Source of the DNA: a virus
Strand: one strand, 5' to 3'
IMG/VR virus record: IMGVR_UViG_3300002460_000007
DNA: 47,457 bases
In this document: in pieces, positions 1 through 47,457 of the stretch
How positions within the stretch are numbered: the first letter of the stretch is position 1
Layout: the number at the start of each line of letters is the position of its first letter
Program-made: the position numbers and the translations under genes
The notes under the pieces: generated by a model
Databases searched by the model: none
What the model saw: only the letters and a program-made list of their open reading frames with translations
Told to the model about the DNA's origin: nothing

Positions 1-43
1 ACAATCGCCACACCAAGAGGCGCTGCTAGTACACTCACCACAA
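1..43. repeat. Terminal identity, left copy: identical to 47415-47457
   Basis: Direct comparison of both ends: acaatcgccacaccaagaggcgctgctagtacactcaccacaa. The identity ends at 43 nt. Confidence 0.9.
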
Positions 44-100
44 CGTCTGCATGAGTGGCAGCAATCAGTACAGGTGCCACAATCGCCACACCAAGAGGCG
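1..100 (-). repeat. 78-bp coding tandem repeat: full unit 1-78 plus a partial diverging unit from 79
   Basis: 1-23 equals 79-101. The unit encodes a 26-aa Cys ladder, CGDCGTCTDCCHSCRRCGECTSSASW, on the minus strand. Confidence 0.85.
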
Positions 101-624
101 CAGCTAGAACAACTCCGAACTCCACAGTCCCCGCAAACCGAAAACCCCCTCACGAACTCATTGCAGTCTGAACACCAATGGTCGCACCCCTCACACTCAC
201 ACTCCGCACAATTTGGACACCTATTAGTATCTTCCTTGCATTCCTCACACTCTAATTGCAGTTTCCACAGGAATCTTTGCACAGCCGATAATAGGTCAAA
301 AGTCTCCCCAGTAGATTGTGCTACCTTTTCGGCAGTTTGGTAATGCTTCGCACACCAATACAAGCCCTCGATACTTCTCGTTCCCTCAAATAGACAGATT
401 ACACAAGACAGAGAATGGGCAGAGACAAGGGCATCATGCATTTGTACCATATACATAAATGGTGCATCCGCATATCCTAATGTTCCTGCTAATCTGATTA
501 TTTCGTTGTAGCAGTCCTTACAGAGATAAACATCCTCCTTGTATTGTTTTATGTTACGCGGTTCTGAAAGAGTCCAAGTAACAACAGCAACACCATGTCC
601 AAAGATGCATTGAGGTGCGTTCAT
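1..624 (-). CDS. N-terminal part (208 codons) of a junction-spanning Cys-ladder protein of about 456 aa; continues at 47414 down to 46668
   Basis: ATG at 624-622 with aggag upstream. I translated all 208 codons on the minus strand with no stop down to base 1 (MNAPQCIFGHGVAVV...CHSCRRCGECTSSASWCGDC). It is absent from the ORF track because it runs off the window. Confidence 0.8.
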   Translation of the reverse strand, partial: MNAPQCIFGHGVAVVTWTLSEPRNIKQYKEDVYLCKDCYNEIIRLAGTLGYADAPFMYMVQMHDALVSAHSLSCVICLFEGTRSIEGLYWCAKHYQTAEKVAQSTGETFDLLSAVQRFLWKLQLECEECKEDTNRCPNCAECECEGCDHWCSDCNEFVRGFSVCGDCGVRSCSSCASWCGDCGTCTDCCHSCRRCGECTSSASWCGDC

Positions 625-627
625 GCT

Positions 628-726
628 TTACTCCTGTTGGTCTATCTCTTTCACGGCGGCGATAGCGGCGCGGTTGTCTATGCATTGGCCCCAAGAATCT
701 GTAAAGCATACGTCACATATCATCAT
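628..726 (-). CDS. Small early protein, 32 aa (MMICDVCFTDSWGQCID...)
   Basis: ATGATG preceded by gaggag. Its stop lies 4 nt before the next ATG (624). Below the track size cut-off. Confidence 0.45.
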   Translation of the reverse strand: MMICDVCFTDSWGQCIDNRAAIAAVKEIDQQE

Positions 727-955: not shown

Positions 956-984
956 ATTATCGCACACTCCGAGAATCGTGTCAA
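956..984 (-). promoter_or_regulatory. Sigma70-type promoter: ggggTTGACA-17-tgcGATAAT
   Basis: Read on the minus strand. The -35 is at 979-984 and the -10 at 956-961, with an extended TG. It is intergenic. Confidence 0.6.
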
Positions 985-3358: not shown

Positions 3359-3387
3359 TTGACAAAGGTGCGCGGATATGTTATAAT
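3359..3387 (+). promoter_or_regulatory. Consensus promoter: TTGACA-17-tgtTATAAT
   Basis: Perfect hexamers and extended -10. Confidence 0.8.
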
Positions 3388-3637: not shown

Positions 3638-3666
3638 TTGACAAACTCTTTCAAATGGTGTATAAT
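3638..3666 (+). promoter_or_regulatory. Consensus promoter: TTGACA-17-TATAAT, head of the structural arm
   Basis: Perfect hexamers. Confidence 0.8.
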
Positions 3667-9049: not shown

Positions 9050-12000
9050 ATGTTACCTGGTTTCGCATCCAAGAAGAAACGAGCAAAGCAGCTTCAGACT
9101 GAGGCTGCCATGCGTACATTTAGGCAGGTTGAGCAACAGACTCAGCCCCGCCGTCTTGTTCCCTTTTCCACCCGCACTGCTGCTGGAACTCCCTTTGACC
9201 TTTCATTTCAGCGAGAAGACCCTGACTATGCCCGTGAGGGGATAGAGAGACTCAAGAAACTGCGGGAACACGCTACACTATCAGTACAAGGAAAAGTACC
9301 ACCAGACCTAGAGACTCCTGAACAACGCACTCAGCACTTTATCCTCAACTATGCGGGCATCCGTGCCCGACAGGGATTGGACTTTGATAGTGCTATTGAT
9401 GAGGCAGTACAAAACGCTGTAGCCCACGGTATACCTGAAAAGTATGCTAGGGATGAAGCTGAAAGGAATAGAGGATTCTGGAGTAAGCTTGGCGGTGCTC
9501 TTCTCAAAGAGGGAGACTTCATTGCCGATGTAGCAATTAGGGACACTGTGCACGATATTGAGAGTGCTTTCAATAGGACTCGTCGCTTCAAGGGTGTCCT
9601 ACCACTCCTAAAAGGTGAGGAGCCCTTTATGACAGAGAGGGAGGCTGAGGAGCACTTTGGCCCTTCTCTGGATATAAGCAGAGAATTGCAGGCTCGCCTT
9701 GATGCTGCTGATGAGGCTAAAGTTCTTTCTCGCCCAGTGGTTCTAGGAGCACAAGAGGCGTTAGCCCGAACTCTGGAGGGACGAGGGGGTAGGGAGAATG
9801 TCTTATCACGCGCAGTACGAAGCCGTGCAGTCACAGAAGTTGGGGCTGAGTTACTTAATCCGATTTATCTTGTATCCGCTTTGCCTTTCCTAAGTCTACG
9901 ACCAGGAGTTTCCGGTGCTAGAGCAACAGCGGATGTAATATCACAACTTGTTGCTACTGGATTAGAGCCTGGTGCAGCCGTTGGCTTCTACAAAGGTTTC
10001 CGCGCTATTGGCAAAGGCACTCTTCGGGCAACGCTTCGTGGTCTTGCTAAGGGCACTGTTCAAACCCTTGAGAAAGAACGAGGCACGCGACTAGCTGCGG
10101 GAATCTTAGGGGAAGCTGACCCGAAAGCACAGGGATTGGCCTTCTCTCGATGGGTTATGAACGAGGATGACCCGTATGAGGCTGGAGTCAAGTGGGCCAG
10201 AGCCACCAACTCAGGCGTGGAAACTGCCGTTACCAATGTCGAAGACCTTGCTGCGCGTCAACGCACTCTGACAGACCTTATTCAAGAGAAGGAAATCAAC
10301 CCCCTCACTGGCCGTCCTACTCAGGAACCTCCTACTATTAAGTCTCCCATGAGAGTACAGATTGAGGACGAGATAAAGGCAGGTAAAACTGCCGAGGAGC
10401 TTCTGGACGAAACGACAGCACGTATTGCTGAGAGTCCTAGGCTTGCTGGTGAAGAGGTCGGAGATGTCTCTGATTCACTTTCTAAAGCTGGAATTCCTGA
10501 AGATGTAGCTAGGCTTCTCACTGACCCTGAGAATCTTTATCCCAAGGGAACACAAGTCTCAATCACTAAAGGCCCACTTAGTGGACAAACTGGTAAAATC
10601 ACTAGCTACACCAAGGTCACAAACTCTTACAAGATTCGAGTAGGTAAGAAGACAACTGACCTTCAGGCTAAGTTCTTCGATGCTATTGAGGATATAGAAC
10701 AACAAGCTGGTAAGATTACCTCTGAGGTGGACGATATTGGTGTTCACACTAACATCAGTTCTATCCTTGATGAATCTGACAATGCTGCCCGTGCCCAACG
10801 CTCTGCCGACCTAGGTGCCGACGAAGTTACAGGAGAGCCTGTCCGCCCATCGTCTGACCCCGCGATTCCTCATCCTGACAAGATTCCCGATAAGGTGATG
10901 ACTAAAGAGGCGCGGGAAGCGATGTACCGTGTCATTGATAAGATACGCCGCACTCAATCGTGGACAGCCGTTGTCCAGAGCGCGATGGAACACGAGATGC
11001 GGGCGCTAGATGTAGATTTGGAAACAGGACTAATCCGAACTGCCACCCCAAAGGATGGAGTATCTAGCACACACTGGGCCGAAGTCTTGTCTGACCCCGA
11101 CAAGTATGATTTTGTTGGGGCTGAGGCTTCGGACATTGAAAAAGCTATACGGAGCTACAACCTATTCACCTTTCAATCCGTCGAGGACGGAGTAAGGGCT
11201 GGTATATTTGATGATGCCTTCTTAAATTTCATCAAACCTGATGGCAAGCGATACGTCCACCGCGTGGCTATCTCTATCGAACAGGATGGGGAAGTCATCG
11301 AGCTTCGCCGTTCCTCTCGTCATGGCCCTCTTGGGCAGAAACAGTCTCACCAAATGCCTCGCACAAGGGAGACTATCGACGAGGCAGGGAGACCGGAAGT
11401 TGTCTATCTAAATAATCCATCTGCGGCCCTAGCAGAATTCATTGAAGAGGTAAACTATCGAATAGCTGTCAAGGAACTAGCCAACGACCTAGAGAAGTAC
11501 GCGGTCACTCCCCACGCACAGCAAGCAACCCGTGTGGCTTATGATGAGGCACGAGAGAAGGCACAGAGTCTCTCCACACAGTTAGAGGACTTGACCCGAA
11601 CTCGTCTGGTTATGCTTGATGAGGAACGTTTAGCTGAGGCAGCGGGTGAGGTAAAGAATGCTGAACGTCTGCGAAGCAATCTTACAGCTATTGAACTAGA
11701 CCTTGACCAAACCAACAAGGAGCTAAAGACTGCCCGCTCTCAGGCCAAGCGACTGCAAAAGACAGTTGCTTACGAGAAAAAGACTTTCCGTTCTATCAAC
11801 ATAGAGCTACAAGGAATCCGTGAGCCGTTTGCTGGAGGCAAGCTCTACCCTAAGTCTGTAGCAGATACAGTTGAACGAACTCTCCGCCTAAACCACCGTG
11901 GTATTGTCTATGGCACAGCTGTCAAGGGCCTTGAGCTTCTGCGGGAAGTCAACAAAGTATTCAAGCCTGTCTGGGCTAGCGCGGACATGTCATTCATCGG

Positions 12001-14080
12001 GCTACAGACCTTGCCCTCTCTTGCTGTCAATCCTGTTGCTTTCGCAGATATGATGAAAGTCACATTCTCCAGTGCAGTCGATGGAGACGTGTACAATGCT
12101 TGGGTTCACTCGCACTTACCTCTTCTACAGGATATGATTGACGATGGTGTTCCCATGTTGGGCACCGAACTCAGCGCAACAGACCTACTAAACCGTATCG
12201 AGAAGACTGCCGGAAAATGGAGCACTAAGTACACCCCACTGTGGTTTATGAAGGGTGGAAACCATATGTGGAATAGGGCGGTGAACATGATTGGTGCTTC
12301 TCTATATGAGCAGAATCGTGCTCTTATGGAAGAGGTTGGTCACAGCAACTATCTACATCTTGCCCAGAAAGCATTTGGCCCCAATATCGTTGGCAAGGAC
12401 ATAACCTCTGCCAGACGTGCTTTGGCCGATGTTGTGTCGCACGGTACTGGACGACTCTCGGCCAATGACCTCATGCACCGTGGCCCAGGAATGAGGCTTC
12501 TATCTGACTCTATTCTATTCGCCGGACAATACTTTGAGTCGTACTTACGGCTCATTATGGACGCACGGCGATTAGGAATTCGTGGCAATCTTGGGCGTCG
12601 TCTCCTAGCAGGATGGGCAACTACAGCTATTGGTGGTTATGTTGCTCTATCTTATATACTAGGACAGGAACCAAAACTAGACCCCACGAAGTATGGCTCC
12701 CAGATTCTTACTGTGCGTTTGGGAAATCAGAACGTGGGATTTGGTGGTGTATTGCAGCAGCTTATGCTCTATGGGGGCAGACTGTCAGAAGCAAAAAGTC
12801 CTCAAGATGTTTTTGATATTACTGAGAGGTTCGTCCGCAGCAAGCAATCTCCGGCCCTATCCTTTGCCTCAGACCTATTCATCAATCGTGCGGATTACAT
12901 AGGGCGCAAGCTTGACACTCGTAATTCCATCCTTGCATATTTAGCCAGTCGTTTTGTCCCCTTTGTGGGCCAAGATATGCTTCGGGAAACGCTAGCAAGG
13001 GGACTATCTGGAGATTGGAGACTCCCAGAGGAATTGAATCCTACCAATGTAATAGGGACACTTCTCGGAGGTCGGTCGTTCCCTGTCTCCAAGAAGACCC
13101 TCCGTAATGAAATCGGAGTGGAAGAGTATCGTCTAAATAATCCACAATCCAAGGAGACTGACGAGTATATTGTAGACAACTACATAAATCCCCAAGTCTT
13201 CATGAGTGACCCTGAGAACTATCCGCGTACTATGAAGGCACAAGAAGAGGTAGATGCGTGGCAGCGAGAGACTGGTTCAAAGTGGCAGGAATATTCTGAT
13301 AAGCGACAGAGTTATAATGATAATCAATTCCAGAAGGATATTGAAGATGGGGCTAAGGAAATTCAATGGGGTCGCGCTGGCGGAGGGGTAACATTTCGAG
13401 AGGATGTACTGCCAGAAGCCTATGCTGGAAAGAACTCATATAACGACCAGACACTTCTAGACCTTGGGCTCAATCCAGATGACTTGCCCGAAGTACAGGG
13501 GAACGACATCAAACTTCTGCGAGACTATCATGCACTGAATTATGATAGTTATAAGGCAGCGGATGGAATTACTCCCGACCCAGAGGGGTACAAAGCTGCT
13601 CAACAGAGTATCCTGAACCAGATGTCCCCTGCTATGAGAGGCTTCATTGAGTCTGGCAAGGATGGTAGGATTACGTCAAGGAAGGGTAAAGACGCAAATA
13701 CTCGCCTAATTTCTACTCGTACTGACCTTCGACGGTGGTTTGATGCTCCGAAATATAAGGGACTCACTGGAGACGAAAGTAAACAGGTTGACCAACTCCT
13801 TGAGTGGGCCTCTACTCTACACGACATGGCAACTCTATCCGGTGTATCCATCGACCGCCGAAAGATTATAGCAATGATGGGGTCTATTCCTCAATATTCT
13901 AAGCTTGCTGCTGTCGCCTTCTTCGCTACCTTCGAGGGTCTGAAGAGTATGGTTCTCAGCGATGAGCAGGAAAAGATAACGATGTCCAACGGGGATTTGG
14001 CAGTTTTCTACCCATTCACCTACGAAGATTTATCTGACGAACTCAAGGTAGACTGGGCAAAACTGTATGGAATGAGATAA
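9050..14080 (+). CDS. Giant virion-associated protein, 1,676 aa (polyvalent or internal-protein type)
   Basis: Uninterrupted ORF between the portal and scaffold genes. KOW/SH3-like GTQVSITKGPLSGQTGKITSY, long coiled coil and hydrophobic segments. No recognisable SD. Confidence 0.6.
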   Translation: MLPGFASKKKRAKQLQTEAAMRTFRQVEQQTQPRRLVPFSTRTAAGTPFDLSFQREDPDYAREGIERLKKLREHATLSVQGKVPPDLETPEQRTQHFILNYAGIRARQGLDFDSAIDEAVQNAVAHGIPEKYARDEAERNRGFWSKLGGALLKEGDFIADVAIRDTVHDIESAFNRTRRFKGVLPLLKGEEPFMTEREAEEHFGPSLDISRELQARLDAADEAKVLSRPVVLGAQEALARTLEGRGGRENVLSRAVRSRAVTEVGAELLNPIYLVSALPFLSLRPGVSGARATADVISQLVATGLEPGAAVGFYKGFRAIGKGTLRATLRGLAKGTVQTLEKERGTRLAAGILGEADPKAQGLAFSRWVMNEDDPYEAGVKWARATNSGVETAVTNVEDLAARQRTLTDLIQEKEINPLTGRPTQEPPTIKSPMRVQIEDEIKAGKTAEELLDETTARIAESPRLAGEEVGDVSDSLSKAGIPEDVARLLTDPENLYPKGTQVSITKGPLSGQTGKITSYTKVTNSYKIRVGKKTTDLQAKFFDAIEDIEQQAGKITSEVDDIGVHTNISSILDESDNAARAQRSADLGADEVTGEPVRPSSDPAIPHPDKIPDKVMTKEAREAMYRVIDKIRRTQSWTAVVQSAMEHEMRALDVDLETGLIRTATPKDGVSSTHWAEVLSDPDKYDFVGAEASDIEKAIRSYNLFTFQSVEDGVRAGIFDDAFLNFIKPDGKRYVHRVAISIEQDGEVIELRRSSRHGPLGQKQSHQMPRTRETIDEAGRPEVVYLNNPSAALAEFIEEVNYRIAVKELANDLEKYAVTPHAQQATRVAYDEAREKAQSLSTQLEDLTRTRLVMLDEERLAEAAGEVKNAERLRSNLTAIELDLDQTNKELKTARSQAKRLQKTVAYEKKTFRSINIELQGIREPFAGGKLYPKSVADTVERTLRLNHRGIVYGTAVKGLELLREVNKVFKPVWASADMSFIGLQTLPSLAVNPVAFADMMKVTFSSAVDGDVYNAWVHSHLPLLQDMIDDGVPMLGTELSATDLLNRIEKTAGKWSTKYTPLWFMKGGNHMWNRAVNMIGASLYEQNRALMEEVGHSNYLHLAQKAFGPNIVGKDITSARRALADVVSHGTGRLSANDLMHRGPGMRLLSDSILFAGQYFESYLRLIMDARRLGIRGNLGRRLLAGWATTAIGGYVALSYILGQEPKLDPTKYGSQILTVRLGNQNVGFGGVLQQLMLYGGRLSEAKSPQDVFDITERFVRSKQSPALSFASDLFINRADYIGRKLDTRNSILAYLASRFVPFVGQDMLRETLARGLSGDWRLPEELNPTNVIGTLLGGRSFPVSKKTLRNEIGVEEYRLNNPQSKETDEYIVDNYINPQVFMSDPENYPRTMKAQEEVDAWQRETGSKWQEYSDKRQSYNDNQFQKDIEDGAKEIQWGRAGGGVTFREDVLPEAYAGKNSYNDQTLLDLGLNPDDLPEVQGNDIKLLRDYHALNYDSYKAADGITPDPEGYKAAQQSILNQMSPAMRGFIESGKDGRITSRKGKDANTRLISTRTDLRRWFDAPKYKGLTGDESKQVDQLLEWASTLHDMATLSGVSIDRRKIIAMMGSIPQYSKLAAVAFFATFEGLKSMVLSDEQEKITMSNGDLAVFYPFTYEDLSDELKVDWAKLYGMR

Positions 14081-14093
14081 TTCTGTGCAGGAC

Positions 14094-14122
14094 TTGACAA
14101 ACTTGCCTAAGTGTGTTATAAT
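14094..14122 (+). promoter_or_regulatory. Consensus promoter: ggacTTGACA-17-tgtTATAAT
   Basis: Perfect hexamers and extended -10. Confidence 0.8.
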
Positions 14123-19554: not shown

Positions 19555-19583
19555 TTGACAAACTAGTGAAAATGTGTTATAAT
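19555..19583 (+). promoter_or_regulatory. Consensus promoter: ggacTTGACA-17-tgtTATAAT
   Basis: Perfect hexamers. Confidence 0.8.
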
Positions 19584-30036: not shown

Positions 30037-30065
30037 ATTATACCACATTCAGAGGCGTTTGTCAA
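30037..30065 (-). promoter_or_regulatory. Consensus promoter: ggcTTGACA-17-tggTATAAT, pointing at the end of the late arm
   Basis: Perfect hexamers on the minus strand. The leader is homologous to the 1394-1419 leader. Confidence 0.75.
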
Positions 30066-31989: not shown

Positions 31990-32018
31990 ATTATACACCA
32001 TCCCTCGTTGTTTGTCAA
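31990..32018 (-). promoter_or_regulatory. Consensus promoter: ccTTGACA-17-TATAAT, upstream of nrdJ
   Basis: Perfect hexamers. CCCCCGC, an inverted half of the box, follows. Confidence 0.8.
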
Positions 32019-32140: not shown

Positions 32141-32218
32141 TGGAGTAGGGGATGGGACTCGAACCCACAACTTGCTGAGTCACAGTCAGCCGGTCTACCA
32201 TTTGACCGCTACCCCTAC
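32141..32218 (-). tRNA. tRNA, anticodon GUG (His), CCA encoded
   Basis: 7-bp acceptor stem, T arm gtggg-ttcgagt-cccat and anticodon arm gctga-CUGUGAC-tcagc. The D arm is slightly irregular. A-1 can pair with U73. Confidence 0.6.
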
Positions 32219-32222
32219 TTTT

Positions 32223-32304
32223 TGGTGGAGCCGGTGGGTGTCGAACCCACGTCCTGAGTACGTCCTTTTCAGGCTTTACTACTCAGTCGAACCCTCGCGG
32301 CCCC
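32223..32304 (-). ncRNA. tRNA-like element, 82 nt: acceptor stem, canonical T arm and CCA, but no D arm or anticodon arm
   Basis: ggggccg pairs with cggctcc (one G-U). T arm gtggg-ttcgaca-cccac. The interior folds as a 7-bp stem ctgagta/tactcag with a 19-nt loop. Confidence 0.4.
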
Positions 32305-42987: not shown

Positions 42988-44508
42988 CTACCTCAGTTGG
43001 TCGTGGAACCACTGAGGAAAAGCCTTTTTATTCCGGTCATACAGGTTTGCAAAACTCCCGTCCAAAATGTAGGTTTCGCAGTAATCATCGGCACTTCGCA
43101 TTCCTCTTCCAATAGTTTGACTAGTGTAGGCGGCAGTGGAATTGAAATAAAACTTTTGTCCCATTCCCCCATCGTTTGCACGAAGATTGACGAGTGGGTC
43201 AGCCAAGTCTGGATATCTAATCTTGGCAATAAGTTGGATTCGACATTGCTCGTCGTCGAAGGACTCTCCTTCTCCGATTGATGGGTGTATAATCCATCCT
43301 GCCTTGCTTGCTCGAAACCTGTCAAGAGTCTCAACACGTTTCCCTCCACGACGTAGAAGTACCAGCCTAGACCGGCAGTCCTGACACCGTAAGATTGTCC
43401 TTGCCAGCCTATCCACCTGAGATACAGAGGCGACGTGGATGATTCCTTTATCCCCACTTCTGCTGTGTATGTATTCATGACATGCTAACCCCATCCTTTC
43501 CCAGTCCTTGACGGACGAATCCTTGTTCATCGAAGCCACGGGTCTATAATACACCGGCCAGCGCCATTTGTCAAATGGGGACGGTGCAGATATATACTTG
43601 TAGTCATCCTTGTACCCTAACAATTCTGCAAAAAAGTCTCCTCCCCATAATGTGGCTGACATAACTAATACATGATTGGCAGACTGGAGCAAAGATTCGG
43701 CGCTCTTACGGGGCCAGAGTGGAGTAGCCTCAAACAAGTCATCGGCACGGGTTACTATAAGCCCCGCCGGACTTGTGGCTAGTCCCTGTAGCTGGTACAT
43801 AAGAGATAACCAAGCCTTTGCCCATTTACTGCCAGATAACGTCAGACCGAAGGCACGTTTACGAACCTTGTCTACATTGAGCTTTGCCCAAGTTTGCATA
43901 GGTTCTATCTCGTTGGACGCTGGAACCTTTAGGTTAAGCTTCTCGCACAATCTCCGGTCAACAGTGATTGTCTCTGCTTGAGTGAGGAAATCTAACAGTC
44001 GGTGCCCCTCATCACAGACTAACAGGTGTGGACGGCGCTCATGCCATCGCTTACCCTTCAGTAGCTCAGACATATACAATGCATAGTTTGTTACCACTAC
44101 TGCCGAGCGTCTGTACTCCTCCTCCTGTGCATAAAAGTCAGAGTTACAAGATATAGACGAGTCAGCTACACACGGAGCGTTCGCTGCCGTAGTCTTGTAT
44201 CTCAGGGTGCACTCGAAGTTATCCCTGCCTACCAGTTTGCAGACACGAGGGAAGTCCGCATCGTATTGGTTCTGCAAAGATATGGTGGCCGTATTGATGA
44301 CAGTGAACGGTGAACCTATCAATTCTGCCAATGATATAGCAATTGCAGACTTCCCGATTCCAGTGGGCAGCTCTAGCATAGTAAGCCTGCCTAATTTAGT
44401 TGAAGATATTGTCCCCAATTCACGGGCTATTTTAATTAAGATATTTCTTTGCATCTCTCGTGCCTCAGCGTAGCGTGGCCCTAGTCCGGCGAAAATTTCC
44501 TCTATCAT
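42988..44508 (-). CDS. SF2 helicase, DinG/Rad3(XPD)-like (track ORF trimmed to ATG 44508)
   Basis: Walker A LPTGIGKS, DEGH box LLVCDEGHRL and a C-terminal IGRGMRSADDYC. ATGA coupling with the upstream ORF. Confidence 0.75.
   Translation of the reverse strand: MIEEIFAGLGPRYAEAREMQRNILIKIARELGTISSTKLGRLTMLELPTGIGKSAIAISLAELIGSPFTVINTATISLQNQYDADFPRVCKLVGRDNFECTLRYKTTAANAPCVADSSISCNSDFYAQEEEYRRSAVVVTNYALYMSELLKGKRWHERRPHLLVCDEGHRLLDFLTQAETITVDRRLCEKLNLKVPASNEIEPMQTWAKLNVDKVRKRAFGLTLSGSKWAKAWLSLMYQLQGLATSPAGLIVTRADDLFEATPLWPRKSAESLLQSANHVLVMSATLWGGDFFAELLGYKDDYKYISAPSPFDKWRWPVYYRPVASMNKDSSVKDWERMGLACHEYIHSRSGDKGIIHVASVSQVDRLARTILRCQDCRSRLVLLRRGGKRVETLDRFRASKAGWIIHPSIGEGESFDDEQCRIQLIAKIRYPDLADPLVNLRANDGGMGQKFYFNSTAAYTSQTIGRGMRSADDYCETYILDGSFANLYDRNKKAFPQWFHDQLR
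43546..43574 (-). promoter_or_regulatory. Possible intragenic promoter: TTGACAAAT-...-TATTAT with a 17-nt spacer
   Basis: Perfect -35 and a 5/6 -10. The flanks resemble the 42356-42384 promoter. Confidence 0.4.
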
Positions 44509-44699
44509 GGTAGACCAGACTCCAACGGGAGGAAATCTCGCGGGTCTGGGTTTATTTGTGTACCACACCACGGGCAGTAGCTTATAGGAACCTCAAAATT
44601 GTCGTCACAACCCCAGATAAGGTTATTCCATAGGTGGGGGGTACATCCCTCAGCTTTTCTAAACCTCCACATCTCGTGGCAACACATCTTCTTATTCAC
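44505..44699 (-). CDS. Small zinc-ribbon protein, 64 aa
   Basis: MCCHE...GC...CPWCG. Coupled by ATGA to the helicase. Confidence 0.45.
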   Translation of the reverse strand: MNKKMCCHEMWRFRKAEGCTPHLWNNLIWGCDDNFEVPISYCPWCGTQINPDPRDFLPLESGLP

Positions 44700-44749: not shown

Positions 44750-45106
44750 CTAAGTGGCGTCCTCACCCTTAGCTCCTGTCAAGGTCTCTGCAAACAACTC
44801 CCACGAACTACTATAGAGCGCTATATTACGCACAGTACCATCTACATCAATTACTCTAGTTTGTAGGCTGTGTATTACCTCTTCTAATTTCTTATTTATT
44901 TTCACTATTGCTTTGAGCGATTCCGTACCTCCCCACAATATTAGAGTCTCTTGGGGGTGGGCGCACTGTGCAAATATGTGAAGTAGGAAATTAATAATCT
45001 GTTCCTTACCTACGTTATGCCTTTGAAATTCAGCCAATAGTTTTTTCAGTAGCGCATCACGGTCTGACAAAACCAGTAGAGACGGGCGGCTCTTACGTTC
45101 TTTCAT
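44750..45106 (-). CDS. Hypothetical protein, 118 aa
   Basis: ATGA coupling to the upstream gene. Confidence 0.55.
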   Translation of the reverse strand: MKERKSRPSLLVLSDRDALLKKLLAEFQRHNVGKEQIINFLLHIFAQCAHPQETLILWGGTESLKAIVKINKKLEEVIHSLQTRVIDVDGTVRNIALYSSSWELFAETLTGAKGEDAT

Positions 45107-46659
45107 GCCTTAAACTCCTCCCATAGAATCGCTGGCCGCACATGATGTGTCTTTTCTGTACAGGATGTGCAGTAAATGTCGTCCGTCGTGTCGTTCCTTC
45201 CGTGTGGTCGTTCAATCATAGACTGTAGCATGGTACAACAACTCTTGCACTGCCAGTAGAACCCATTAGTCTCAAAATCTGCAAGCCTAGTGACTCCTCG
45301 ACCCTGTGCCTCCTTCACCTTCTCCCTAAATGCTATTCGTCTTGCCTTACGCTGCTTCTTACCTTCCTTCTTCTCAGCCCGCGTCTTGTATTTCGTGCCT
45401 TGATTCTTATTAGTTGATGCACTAAGACTGACAGGAGCGGGCGGGGTAGGTTCACCAGCAAACCCGTAGATGAACGCTCGTTGTGCGTAGGTTTCGATGG
45501 CTTCTTGACAGTGGTTCTTTCGCACCAGGTTGATAGCATCTAGCGCCGTCATCTCTAACAACTCTACCGCCAACAGTGCCATGAACGTGCCCGTCCTGCC
45601 ATGTCCCCCCATGCACCCAATGTCTACCTTCTTGCCCTCTTTTATTAGCTCTGTCGCAGCCTTGACAATGTGTAGTATGTATGGACTACGCGGTGCGCTC
45701 ATGTCTGTCCAGTCGTAGAACAGGCACGGGAAAGCCACATCTATCTTTACCAATTCTCTTGGGAAGTCCGGCGTCACCGTCAGTTTATGCGACCACGAGA
45801 TAGTAGAGAAGTAGAAGCCATAGTCCGGTCGTATGTCCGTGTCCTTCGCACTATTCTTATCGGAGGATGCAGAGGCATAGACAGTGTATTCTCCTAGTTT
45901 CACAGGGTCACGCCAGTGGTCGCAGTTGTGAAATCCTCCGCCGTACCACTGTGAGTTCTCGTATCTCCCATAATTGTATACGTTGCTCCGGTGGTACGTG
46001 CTTGCCAGACTAGGTGTTACGCCCTGCCCTGTCCCAACCTCAGTGAACGAACCATCAGACATTTTGCGAAATCTATGGAATCGTGTCTGCCCACAAACTA
46101 GGCACTCTAACTTAGGAGATGTATTGTTCGTCGTCCCCATGACCACACGATAGAGAAACTTGTGCTGTTGGTTTGTGCCACATCTGGCACAGAAGATGTA
46201 ATCCTCATCCTCTTCTTCTGTATCAGCGGGGTCGTTCTCATCGGTAGTGTCAGGTATGTTGAGCACGTTCTTCTCCCACCACACAAGGAACTCAAAATTT
46301 ACACCATCTGAATACAGTTTCTCAATGCTAATGTCAGCTACGCTCACGTCCTTGCCGAAAGTGGTCTTACACTTCACACAGATAGCATCGGCGTTGGTTG
46401 CTAGTCCGTCTTCTGATTCTAGTGCGTGGTATTCCACACTTCCACAAGTGAAACAGTATAGATTACCTCCCGCCCATACCTCTTGCTCTATACAAGTGCA
46501 GCACAAATCACACCGGCCACAATCATGACATAGGCACAAGTCACAGACAGGGAATGTGTCACAGTTTGTTTCCTTGCAATAGTAAAGTAGCCCGTCGACT
46601 TTCATCTCTGTCTTACATAGCCTACAGTGTACCGCCTCAGTTGGTTTTGTTATTGTCAT
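45103..46659 (-). CDS. Multi-zinc-ribbon / Cys-ladder protein with a cysteine (CX5R) dual-specificity-phosphatase-like domain
   Basis: P-loop VDIGCMGGHGRTGTF (codons at 45586-45627). Upstream is a general-acid loop FYDWTDMSAP; downstream is AINLVRKNHCQEAIETYAQRAF. N-terminal ladder CDLCLCHDCGRCDLCCTC. Confidence 0.7.
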   Translation of the reverse strand: MTITKPTEAVHCRLCKTEMKVDGLLYYCKETNCDTFPVCDLCLCHDCGRCDLCCTCIEQEVWAGGNLYCFTCGSVEYHALESEDGLATNADAICVKCKTTFGKDVSVADISIEKLYSDGVNFEFLVWWEKNVLNIPDTTDENDPADTEEEDEDYIFCARCGTNQQHKFLYRVVMGTTNNTSPKLECLVCGQTRFHRFRKMSDGSFTEVGTGQGVTPSLASTYHRSNVYNYGRYENSQWYGGGFHNCDHWRDPVKLGEYTVYASASSDKNSAKDTDIRPDYGFYFSTISWSHKLTVTPDFPRELVKIDVAFPCLFYDWTDMSAPRSPYILHIVKAATELIKEGKKVDIGCMGGHGRTGTFMALLAVELLEMTALDAINLVRKNHCQEAIETYAQRAFIYGFAGEPTPPAPVSLSASTNKNQGTKYKTRAEKKEGKKQRKARRIAFREKVKEAQGRGVTRLADFETNGFYWQCKSCCTMLQSMIERPHGRNDTTDDIYCTSCTEKTHHVRPAILWEEFKA

Positions 46660-46667
46660 TCGCTCTC

Positions 46668-47457
46668 CTATCTAAACGTGTGGGAACCAAACTGTTTCCA
46701 CGCATGATAACGCTTAGTGTGTGGTTCTTCTTCCGGCAGATGCTTCTCAACGTACTCTATTCTACCCTCCAAGTTGGCATCGAGTATATCTTTGAGCCCA
46801 TACGTCGTCCACAGTTTGTTGAATATGCAGCCGTTGTTATGCTCCAGTCCGAAAGCGGTATCAACAAATGTGACCACACTAATCTCACCCTCCTCGAACT
46901 GCCTGAGTGTGGCCGCCACTTGTGCCCAAGCATGACCACCTACTGACCTTCCCCACTTGCCTTCTTCTAGAGCGTACTCCGCCTCTCTAAGAATGTCAGT
47001 GCCATACTCATCGCGCAGGGTTTTCCACTCTGCCCACGCCTTGCCTCGATTGATGTTACCATACTTACGATACCTTTTGTGTATTCTAGGCATCAGTCTC
47101 TTAGCCTCACCATCACCAATCGTCTCCGACCCATACCTAATCTCCCCACCAACAGCCATGTCTAGATAAGGAGCAAAGACTTCGGCCAGTTCCTTCGCGT
47201 AGTTCTCAAACTCTTGCTTGTAGCTTGGGTCACGCTCGGCCATAGTTGCTAGAGTATAGAATGTGGCCGCCGCTTGGTGTAGCTTAAACACAATGGGCAA
47301 CCCCCAATCTCCTACAGCCACATCAGATTCGGAATCGTGCCCGCAGTCACATTCACCGCTGCTAGTACACTCACCACAACGTCTGCATGAGTGGCAGCAA
47401 TCAGTACAGGTGCCACAATCGCCACACCAAGAGGCGCTGCTAGTACACTCACCACAA
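46668..47457 (-). CDS. C-terminal part of the junction-spanning Cys-ladder protein (orphan 217-aa domain plus repeat region)
   Basis: The frame is open from 47457 down to the stop at 46668. The track start (GTG 47321) is internal. The frame matches 1-624 after removal of the 43-nt overlap. Confidence 0.75.
   Translation of the reverse strand, partial: CGECTSSASWCGDCGTCTDCCHSCRRCGECTSSGECDCGHDSESDVAVGDWGLPIVFKLHQAAATFYTLATMAERDPSYKQEFENYAKELAEVFAPYLDMAVGGEIRYGSETIGDGEAKRLMPRIHKRYRKYGNINRGKAWAEWKTLRDEYGTDILREAEYALEEGKWGRSVGGHAWAQVAATLRQFEEGEISVVTFVDTAFGLEHNNGCIFNKLWTTYGLKDILDANLEGRIEYVEKHLPEEEPHTKRYHAWKQFGSHTFR
47359..47457 (-). repeat. 78-bp coding tandem repeat, right-end copies
   Basis: 47359-47414 equals unit positions 23-78. 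47415-47457 equals unit positions 1-43. Confidence 0.85.
47415..47457. repeat. Terminal identity, right copy: identical to 1-43
   Basis: Same 43-mer as the window start. It lies inside a coding tandem repeat. Confidence 0.9.

Follow-up and report, generated by a model that had tools for sequence, protein, structure and literature searches.

The plant starch GWD/SEX4 cycle pairs a dikinase with a phosphatase of the dual-specificity phosphatase (DSP) type. Tandem CxxC zinc-binding arrays form a second class of described elements, exemplified by zf-CXXC ('CGxCxxC'), the cysteine-rich domain of DnaJ and metallothionein-like ladders. In phage genome papers, pyruvate phosphate dikinase (PPDK) and protein tyrosine phosphatase (PTP) are classed as auxiliary metabolic genes, and viral PPDK is stated to lack functional study (PMC12038007; PMC7326821). 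We have found that two adjacent genes of a phage, IMG/VR virus record IMGVR_UViG_3300002460_000007, belong to a gene pair that recurs across divergent phages. The record, analysed over its whole length of 47,457 nucleotides and hereafter called the window, carries gene A, whose product ends in an all-helical domain (the A-domain), and gene B, which encodes a cysteine-based phosphatase. In other phages the same pair is found with parts of PPDK-type dikinases. The literature on phage PPDK and phosphatase, polyvalent proteins, hypermodification and anti-defence yielded genome descriptions only; as far as the tools and the literature show, the resulting cassette matches no described system, no functional description having been found.

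Co-occurrence of the A-domain and phosphatase genes

A-domain genes were compared in 62 non-redundant loci drawn from viral, metagenome and genome collections, 42 of which had enough flanking DNA to be informative. A phosphatase gene lies at most 2 kb from the A-domain gene in 41 of these 42 loci, and it also adjoins the A-domain gene in 6 of 6 further long contigs of the wider family. The A-domain and the phosphatase thus form a near-obligate pair across divergent phages, and this co-occurrence supports the two-component module that an earlier, model-made note on the same DNA (the original prediction) had put forward. The two genes usually lie on the same strand, A followed by the phosphatase, in frames that often overlap or abut, and some loci are arranged A-P-A or P-A-P, where P is the phosphatase. 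The order A, B, helicase is kept throughout the window's own clade (L001-L006). Cultured-phage records that match the phosphatase query largely match the A-domain query too, with the two matches ~1 kb apart in either order; the carriers are SIO-2-like Vibrio siphophages, Stenotrophomonas phages DLP3 and Summit, Rhizobium phages TM16 and Y1_11, and Rhodobacter phage RcZahn. Cultured carriers suitable for testing exist in the SIO-2-like Vibrio phages, Stenotrophomonas DLP3/DLP5 and RcZahn. In the window itself, translational coupling is visible in the A-B sequence, and the original prediction correctly described the two genes as adjacent, with the stop codon of A inside the Shine-Dalgarno sequence of B (Table 1).

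The A-domain, a segment of 217 aa in the original prediction, had been considered an orphan, a description that no longer holds. A profile of the C-terminal 220 residues of A, run against 1.84 billion proteins, retrieved 2,063 cluster representatives with E ≤ 1e-3, of which 660 reach E ≤ 1e-10. All 92 members tested match phrog_20946, a PHROG without annotation. Window A itself matches phrog_20946 at E = 1.6e-13, a match that covers only the most conserved 55 residues, and it matches a local family hidden Markov model (HMM) at E = 3e-81 with all invariant columns present. Searches of Pfam, NCBIfam, PADLOC and PDB sequence profiles gave no match to the A-domain, and 98 of 98 profile matches in a collection of 5.8 billion proteins are unnamed or called 'hypothetical protein'. 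The AlphaFold model of the domain is all-helical, with a predicted local distance difference test (pLDDT) score of 89.8 and a predicted template modelling (pTM) score of 0.87. Foldseek found nothing better than E = 0.5 for it in PDB, and BFVD holds four matches only, all of them unnamed viral proteins. The residues that remain invariant at ~30% identity are G-G-E-x-R, R, W, W, G-G, W, D, H-N and K (in fragment numbering G66-G67-E68-x-R70, R100, W104/W107, G136-G137, W140, D162, H169-N170 and K177; full-length numbering includes E299, R301, R331, D393, H400, N401 and K408). Because polar residues are invariant at this level of identity, the domain has an enzyme-like appearance, and these residues look like an active or ligand-binding site. 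Its size (over 2,000 clusters), its well-modelled fold without a match, its lack of annotation and its near-constant phosphatase neighbour, often joined by a reduced dikinase, together make the A-domain family a strong pointer to a phage biochemical pathway not yet known.

Judged by its sequence, gene B encodes a member of the PTP/DSP superfamily with intact catalytic residues. The loop C349-MGGHG-R355-T356, which has the form C-x5-R(S/T), is invariant among 11 homologues, as is the TG of CMGGHGRTG that follows. D319, ~30 residues upstream of the catalytic Cys, is also invariant and W317 nearly so, giving a W-x-D context, and by its position D319 is the probable general acid. The earlier identification of B as a CX5R phosphatase is upheld by the invariance of C349, R355 and D319. 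Among curated families, B scores 28.4 bits against PF22785 (Tc-R-P; cutoff 27) and falls below the cutoffs for PF22784 (PTP-SAK), PF00102 and PF00782. The model of the phosphatase core has a pLDDT of 70-93, the full-length model averages 53.5, and the ladder region described below stands at ~30. Foldseek with the B model returned VHZ, DUSP23, Tk-PTP and the MKPs at E of ~1e-5 to 1e-6, indicating a PTP fold, and the RNA phosphatase PIR1 appears lower in the list. Around this core are four CxxC...CxxC ribbons, a Cys ladder and a basic linker. The phosphatase partner is labelled 'thymidylate synthase' in DLP3 gp141, DLP5, Vibrio sm030, CAU_VPP01, 29Fa.3 and phrog_17568; since the C-x5-R phosphatase is the sole recognisable domain, this label is probably wrong and spreading.

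Dikinase parts accompany the pair in several forms. The cassettes L075-L080 encode a PPDK-type ATP-grasp domain (~250 aa) and a PEP-utilizers swivel domain (~120 aa), which are either split or fused, the fused 'mini-dikinase' being 345-362 aa long and without a substrate domain. In proteins P0095 and P0163, the PPDK N-terminal and swivel domains are fused to an A-domain, which lies C-terminal to the swivel and occupies the position of the PPDK substrate domain. In RcZahn, DLP3 and TM16 the A-domain gene is preceded, at a distance of two to three genes, by a PPDK without most of its phosphoenolpyruvate (PEP)/pyruvate domain; a gene annotated as PPDK takes this position in R30Z and LV6. The RcZahn 'PPDK' aligns with the 865-position PPDK model over positions 12-523 only, from which it follows that most of the PEP/pyruvate domain is missing; its C-terminus, tested as an A-domain, gave no match. 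Among the window's relatives, L001 and L004 have a swivel-only gene upstream of A. The recurrent link with PPDK-type dikinases points to phosphotransfer chemistry rather than to host takeover or counter-defence. Three further families were seen around the cassettes: family X (227-296 aa), without annotation, upstream of the A-domain gene in L075, L077, L078 and L080; family Y (129-200 aa), also without annotation, 3' of the phosphatase in the marine cassettes L077-L080; and a separate family, comprising RcZahn g12, DLP3_142 and SIO-2 VPEG_00061, that accompanies the cassette in large siphophages. The window was searched for all three and holds no homologue.

A proposed phosphotransfer and dephosphorylation cassette

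We propose, with a probability of roughly 0.6, that A and B represent, in its smallest form, a widespread and uncharacterised phage phosphotransfer/dephosphorylation cassette. Its universal core would consist of a protein bearing the all-helical A-domain (phrog_20946) and a Cys-X5-Arg phosphatase with intact catalytic residues, to which many phages would add a 'mini-dikinase' of PPDK-type ATP-grasp and phospho-His swivel domains that has no substrate domain of its own. Phosphate would pass from ATP to the swivel histidine and from there to a substrate that the A-domain would hold or process, and the phosphatase would remove it, either resetting the system or acting as a second processing step. 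We infer the direction of phosphate flow, the A-domain as the acceptor module, and zinc binding. Since the genes are located in early or replication modules, candidate substrates would be macromolecules of host or phage and nucleotide-related compounds. The window phage would have lost, or never had, the dikinase parts, and the donor would be a host enzyme or another source. The Cys arrays of its two proteins, which in A form a ladder growing by tandem duplication and in B a ladder together with four ribbons, would be clade-specific gains, serving as decoration rather than as the basis of the partnership. As a natural minimal variant, with A, the phosphatase and zinc-ladder decoration, the window helps to separate core from accessory functions.

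Several points weigh against this proposal. The window has no ATP-grasp gene (PF01326), as judged by tblastn with the RcZahn PPDK and by the mini-dikinase HMM, and no match to the phospho-histidine swivel (PF00391). The pair must therefore work there without a phage dikinase, which means either that the donor comes from the host or that the function of the A-domain is unrelated to phosphotransfer. Most soil or Actinomycetota-type A-phosphatase loci are likewise without dikinase genes in the flanks fetched, which extend up to 6 kb. For the A-domain, sequence and structure searches turned up neither a phosphate-binding or kinase motif of known type nor a structural relative. Many of the loci also come from related phage lineages, so the pairing counts are not fully independent events.

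A tentative extension, which we hold to be possible and clearly less probable than the cassette itself, makes the A-domain the substrate-specific third module of a split phage dikinase of a new class, in which it follows the ATP-grasp and His-swivel modules. Such an enzyme would phosphorylate a macromolecule (for instance DNA, RNA or a host protein) at an early stage of infection, and the phosphatase would reverse or complete the reaction. If this is true, an unrecognised reversible phosphorylation system exists in thousands of phage lineages, with the zinc ladders as optional targeting or scaffolding elements.

Somewhat more doubtful is a role in replication or nucleic-acid metabolism, in which the pair would act on DNA, RNA or nucleotides, for example by end processing similar to that of polynucleotide kinase (PNK)-phosphatase or by phosphate-activated base modification, and the zinc arrays would bind nucleic acid. 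This explanation concerns the substrate and is compatible with the proposed cassette. A helicase and a family A DNA polymerase stand beside the pair in every context (the window, L001-L006, RcZahn, DLP3, SIO-2, TM16 and L014), and a target among nucleic acids or nucleotide-related compounds is suggested by this constant proximity. The translational coupling of the early operon with the helicase and the many zinc ribbons fit such a role, and PPDK-type enzymes elsewhere activate hydroxyl or carbonyl oxygens by phosphorylation. However, the pair has no homologue in any known family of replication, repair or DNA-modification proteins, B finds its nearest structural matches among small DSP/PTP protein phosphatases, with PIR1 further down the list, and the window genes that were scanned included neither a hydroxymethylase nor another modification gene. 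DLP3, moreover, has its own primase elsewhere in the genome (PMC7326821).

Cysteine ladders and auxiliary metabolism as alternatives

Gene A becomes a 456-aa open reading frame (ORF) on the minus strand once the ends of the window are joined through their exact 43-nt overlap (1-43 = 47415-47457); it runs from an ATG at 624 to position 1 and continues from 47414 to 46668. The original prediction had read A as a junction-spanning gene, and this reading is confirmed by protein P0001 (456 aa, 97% identity) and by L074, an independent, linear contig, both of which carry the same sequence through the junction. A 78-nt tandem duplication of ladder-coding DNA contains the contig breakpoint, positions 47357-47457 and 1-111 holding ~2.2 tandem copies of a 78-nt (26-aa) unit, ASWCGDCGTCTDCCHSCRRCGECTSS. 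Two copies are found only in the window lineage (the window, P0001 and L074), and more distant homologues have one copy, a distribution that indicates tandem expansion and not an artefact. A terminal repeat created by assembly was considered and rejected, as the independent contig L074 carries the same two copies. The ladder of gene A is growing by tandem duplication in the window lineage, through a recent in-frame expansion of a zinc-knuckle unit.

According to the original prediction, the ladders of A and B are paralogous modules, and it is on this basis that a shared metal-binding or targeting ladder might bring two effectors to one target, or dimerise them, as a host-takeover or counter-defence pair. 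The ladder core is indeed present in both genes, and within the six-frame translation of the window the pattern D-C-G-x-C-x-x-C-C-x(1,2)-C has no matches outside A, where two repeat copies match, and B. A holds 21 CxxC motifs and B 12 in a proteome with 1.8% Cys overall, and because of this concentration proteome-wide Cys richness was rejected as an explanation of the ladders. The spacing C-x2-C-x2-C-x2-C-C is found repeatedly in both families. Seven aligned identical ladder residues share the same codons (a post hoc observation with a probability of ~0.5% by chance; the longest shared exact DNA word is 9 nt), and this codon identity favours, post hoc, a recent shared origin of the ladder. Both partners bear ladders only in the window's clade (the window, L001, L005, L006 and L026), and the phosphatase has a ladder only where A has one, with the lone exception of L029, whose A gene lies 125 nt from the contig end.

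Against these observations, BLASTP aligned the A and B ladders at E = 0.088 and profile-profile comparison with hhalign gave a probability of 2.6%, the top local match lying outside the ladder. The observed ladder identity was equalled by 278 of 2,000 shuffles in which the Cys residues were fixed (14%) and by 65 of 2,000 full shuffles (3%). The similarity is no more than Cys spacing gives, and the claim of paralogy was not sustained. Outside the window, only the nearest relatives, P0001 on the A side and P0010 and P0011 on the B side, have the exact motif, and the next A homologue carries CYHCDTCNTCC in its place. The B homologues P0016, which is the B of L004, and P0015 have no ladder, and the ladder region of window B is modelled without confidence. 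Neither A nor B matches PADLOC, which is a weak test of counter-defence as that database covers defence systems and not anti-defence proteins. The ladder is on neither protein in 31 of 41 A-phosphatase pairs. The undescribed two-component module of the original prediction thus stands as regards near-obligate co-occurrence and the lack of a described system, but its link runs through the A-domain and phosphatase domains and not through the ladder, and a shared ladder is an unlikely basis for the pair.

Most simply, the ladders would be clade-specific binding or scaffolding arrays, presumably zinc-binding. A Cys-rich array that ends in C-x-C immediately ahead of the domain is present in ~25% of those A-family representatives whose N-terminal extension measures 40 aa or more, and the length of the repeat unit varies from 15 to 26 aa among A relatives. 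L014 (4031-4963) and L015 (4191-5282) have a Cys- and Asp/Glu-rich insertion of ~80-110 residues inside the A-domain, between the GGE-x-R and R..AW motifs of the first A-domain copy in an A-P-A arrangement, and similar arrays thus occupy different positions within the A family. At E ≤ 0.1, gene A had no Pfam match and the matches of gene B were confined to phosphatase families; no curated zinc-finger profile was among them. The acquisition of ladders by both partners in one clade keeps a weak form of the shared-ladder idea in play.

By far the least probable explanation is that 'PPDK' and 'tyrosine phosphatase' are auxiliary metabolic genes that separately boost host central carbon metabolism or signalling, their adjacency to the A-domain being incidental: the annotation and discussion in PMC12038007 and GenBank product names favour it, but the RcZahn PPDK lacks most of the PEP/pyruvate domain, the cassette forms are mini-dikinases or split genes, the adjacency is near-obligate and to a non-metabolic, phage-restricted domain, and the window keeps A and the phosphatase without any PPDK. 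Auxiliary-metabolic labels (glycolysis or signalling) on these phage genes are probably misinterpretations.

Genomic setting and comparison with known systems

At ~47.4 kb, the window represents a complete phage genome in circularly permuted form. Structural genes lie on the plus strand, and the replication and nucleotide module lies on the minus strand with a class II ribonucleotide reductase (RNR), NT5C, an RNase H-like exonuclease, Rad52, a trypsin-like protease, a fusion of uracil-DNA glycosylase (UDG) and PolA, and a DinG-like helicase. Features of the A-B locus are listed in Table 1. Placement of the pair at the head of a leftward unit, as first suggested, is reasonable given the sigma-70-like promoter that precedes a 32-aa ORF and then A; the 32-aa ORF has no homologues in related loci. 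The two small genes that were said to follow the pair are present, with overlapping starts and stops, but neither the 118-aa ORF nor the 64-aa zinc-ribbon ORF has homologues in related loci. Both were rejected as module members on this ground, and the 118-aa ORF is probably outside the module.

Table 1. Positions of features of the A-B locus in the window
Feature	Position	Strand	Remarks
Promoter-like site TTGACA-17-GATAAT with TG extension	956..984	-	sigma-70-like; 5' of the 32-aa ORF, then gene A
32-aa ORF, begins MMICDVCFTDSWGQC	628..726	-	between promoter and gene A
Gene A, 5' part, residues 1-208	1..624	-	N-terminal CxxC region and most of the Cys ladder
Gene A, 3' part, residues 209-456 and stop	46668..47414	-	
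Gene A Cys ladder, 5' part, residues 126-208	1..249	-	
Gene A Cys ladder, 3' end	47331..47457	-	whole ladder, residues 126-236
A-domain, residues 237-456	46671..47330	-	all-helical; family phrog_20946
A/B junction	46657..46670	-	A TAG 46670-46668 overlaps AGGAG Shine-Dalgarno 46669-46665; 5-nt spacer; B ATG 46659-46657
Gene B, 518 aa	45103..46659	-	Cys-based phosphatase with several zinc ribbons
B N-terminal zinc ribbon and ladder, residues 12-55, including CLCHDCGRCDLCCTC	46495..46626	-	model pLDDT ~30; zinc binding presumed
B phosphatase domain, ~residues 245-405	45445..45927	-	
B P-loop C349-MGGHG-R355	45595-45615	-	candidate general acid D319
118-aa ORF	44750..45106	-	start overlaps gene B stop (ATGA)
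64-aa zinc-ribbon ORF	44505..44699	-	stop overlaps helicase ATG at 44508
DinG/XPD-like helicase	42988..44508	-	downstream neighbour of the A-B pair, kept in the window's clade

Other features of the window were noted. A uniform promoter family, TTGACAAA-N15-TATAAT, is found on both strands, with 18 matches at ≤ 3 mismatches against 3.2 expected and 7 perfect matches; examples are 3359-3387, 3638-3666, 14094-14122 and 19555-19583 on the plus strand and 30037-30065, 31990-32018 and 42356-42384 on the minus strand. These sites sit within longer conserved repeats of 34-46 nt, and their uniformity suggests that the phage depends wholly on host sigma-70. An 82-nt match to the Rfam transfer-messenger RNA (tmRNA) model RF00023 lies at 32223-32304 (-), with 61.7 bits against a gathering score of 47. 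It spans model positions 1-374 and so represents the tRNA-like ends only, and ARAGORN called no tmRNA; a tRNA-His(GTG) is located directly downstream, at 32141-32218 (-). The family A DNA polymerase (39340-41460, -) is fused to an N-terminal UDG-superfamily domain, a fusion that is kept in relatives, and the 3' end of its gene is overlapped by a weak LAGLIDADG-like ORF (38927-39349, -). The structural arm contains a 1,676-aa ORF (9050-14080, +). A megablast search of 17 kb of the window against cultured phages gave no match.

Compared with described families, the A C-terminal domain and all its tested relatives belong with phrog_20946, which itself brings no annotation and a match limited to the 55 residues given above. 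No Pfam, NCBIfam or PDB match connects the A-domain with core replication factors (primase, helicase loader or single-stranded DNA-binding protein). The ladders resemble tandem CxxC arrays in their periodic C-x2-C and CGxCxxC strings; they differ in having no Pfam zinc-finger match (E ≤ 0.1) and a unit of 15-26 aa, and their metal binding is presumed. Gene B shares with the PTP/DSP superfamily (VHZ/DUSP23 and archaeal Tk-PTP; PF22785, PF22784) its C-x5-R P-loop, the Asp of W-x-D and the PTP fold. Unlike those enzymes, B has ~240 N-terminal residues of zinc ribbons and ladder, a basic linker and a C-terminal zinc ribbon, its type is always paired with an A-domain gene, and its Pfam scores are at or below threshold except for PF22785. 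The wider-family cassette resembles PPDK, PEP synthase, rifampicin phosphotransferase and glucan-water dikinase in its ATP-grasp and swivel domains and in the A-domain, which takes the place of the PPDK substrate domain in fusions and among neighbouring genes. It differs from them in that the A-domain has no sequence or structural likeness to known substrate domains, the parts are split into small genes, and the window phage has neither ATP-grasp nor swivel. The closest working analogy to the cassette is the plant starch GWD/SEX4 system, an analogy and not a case of membership.

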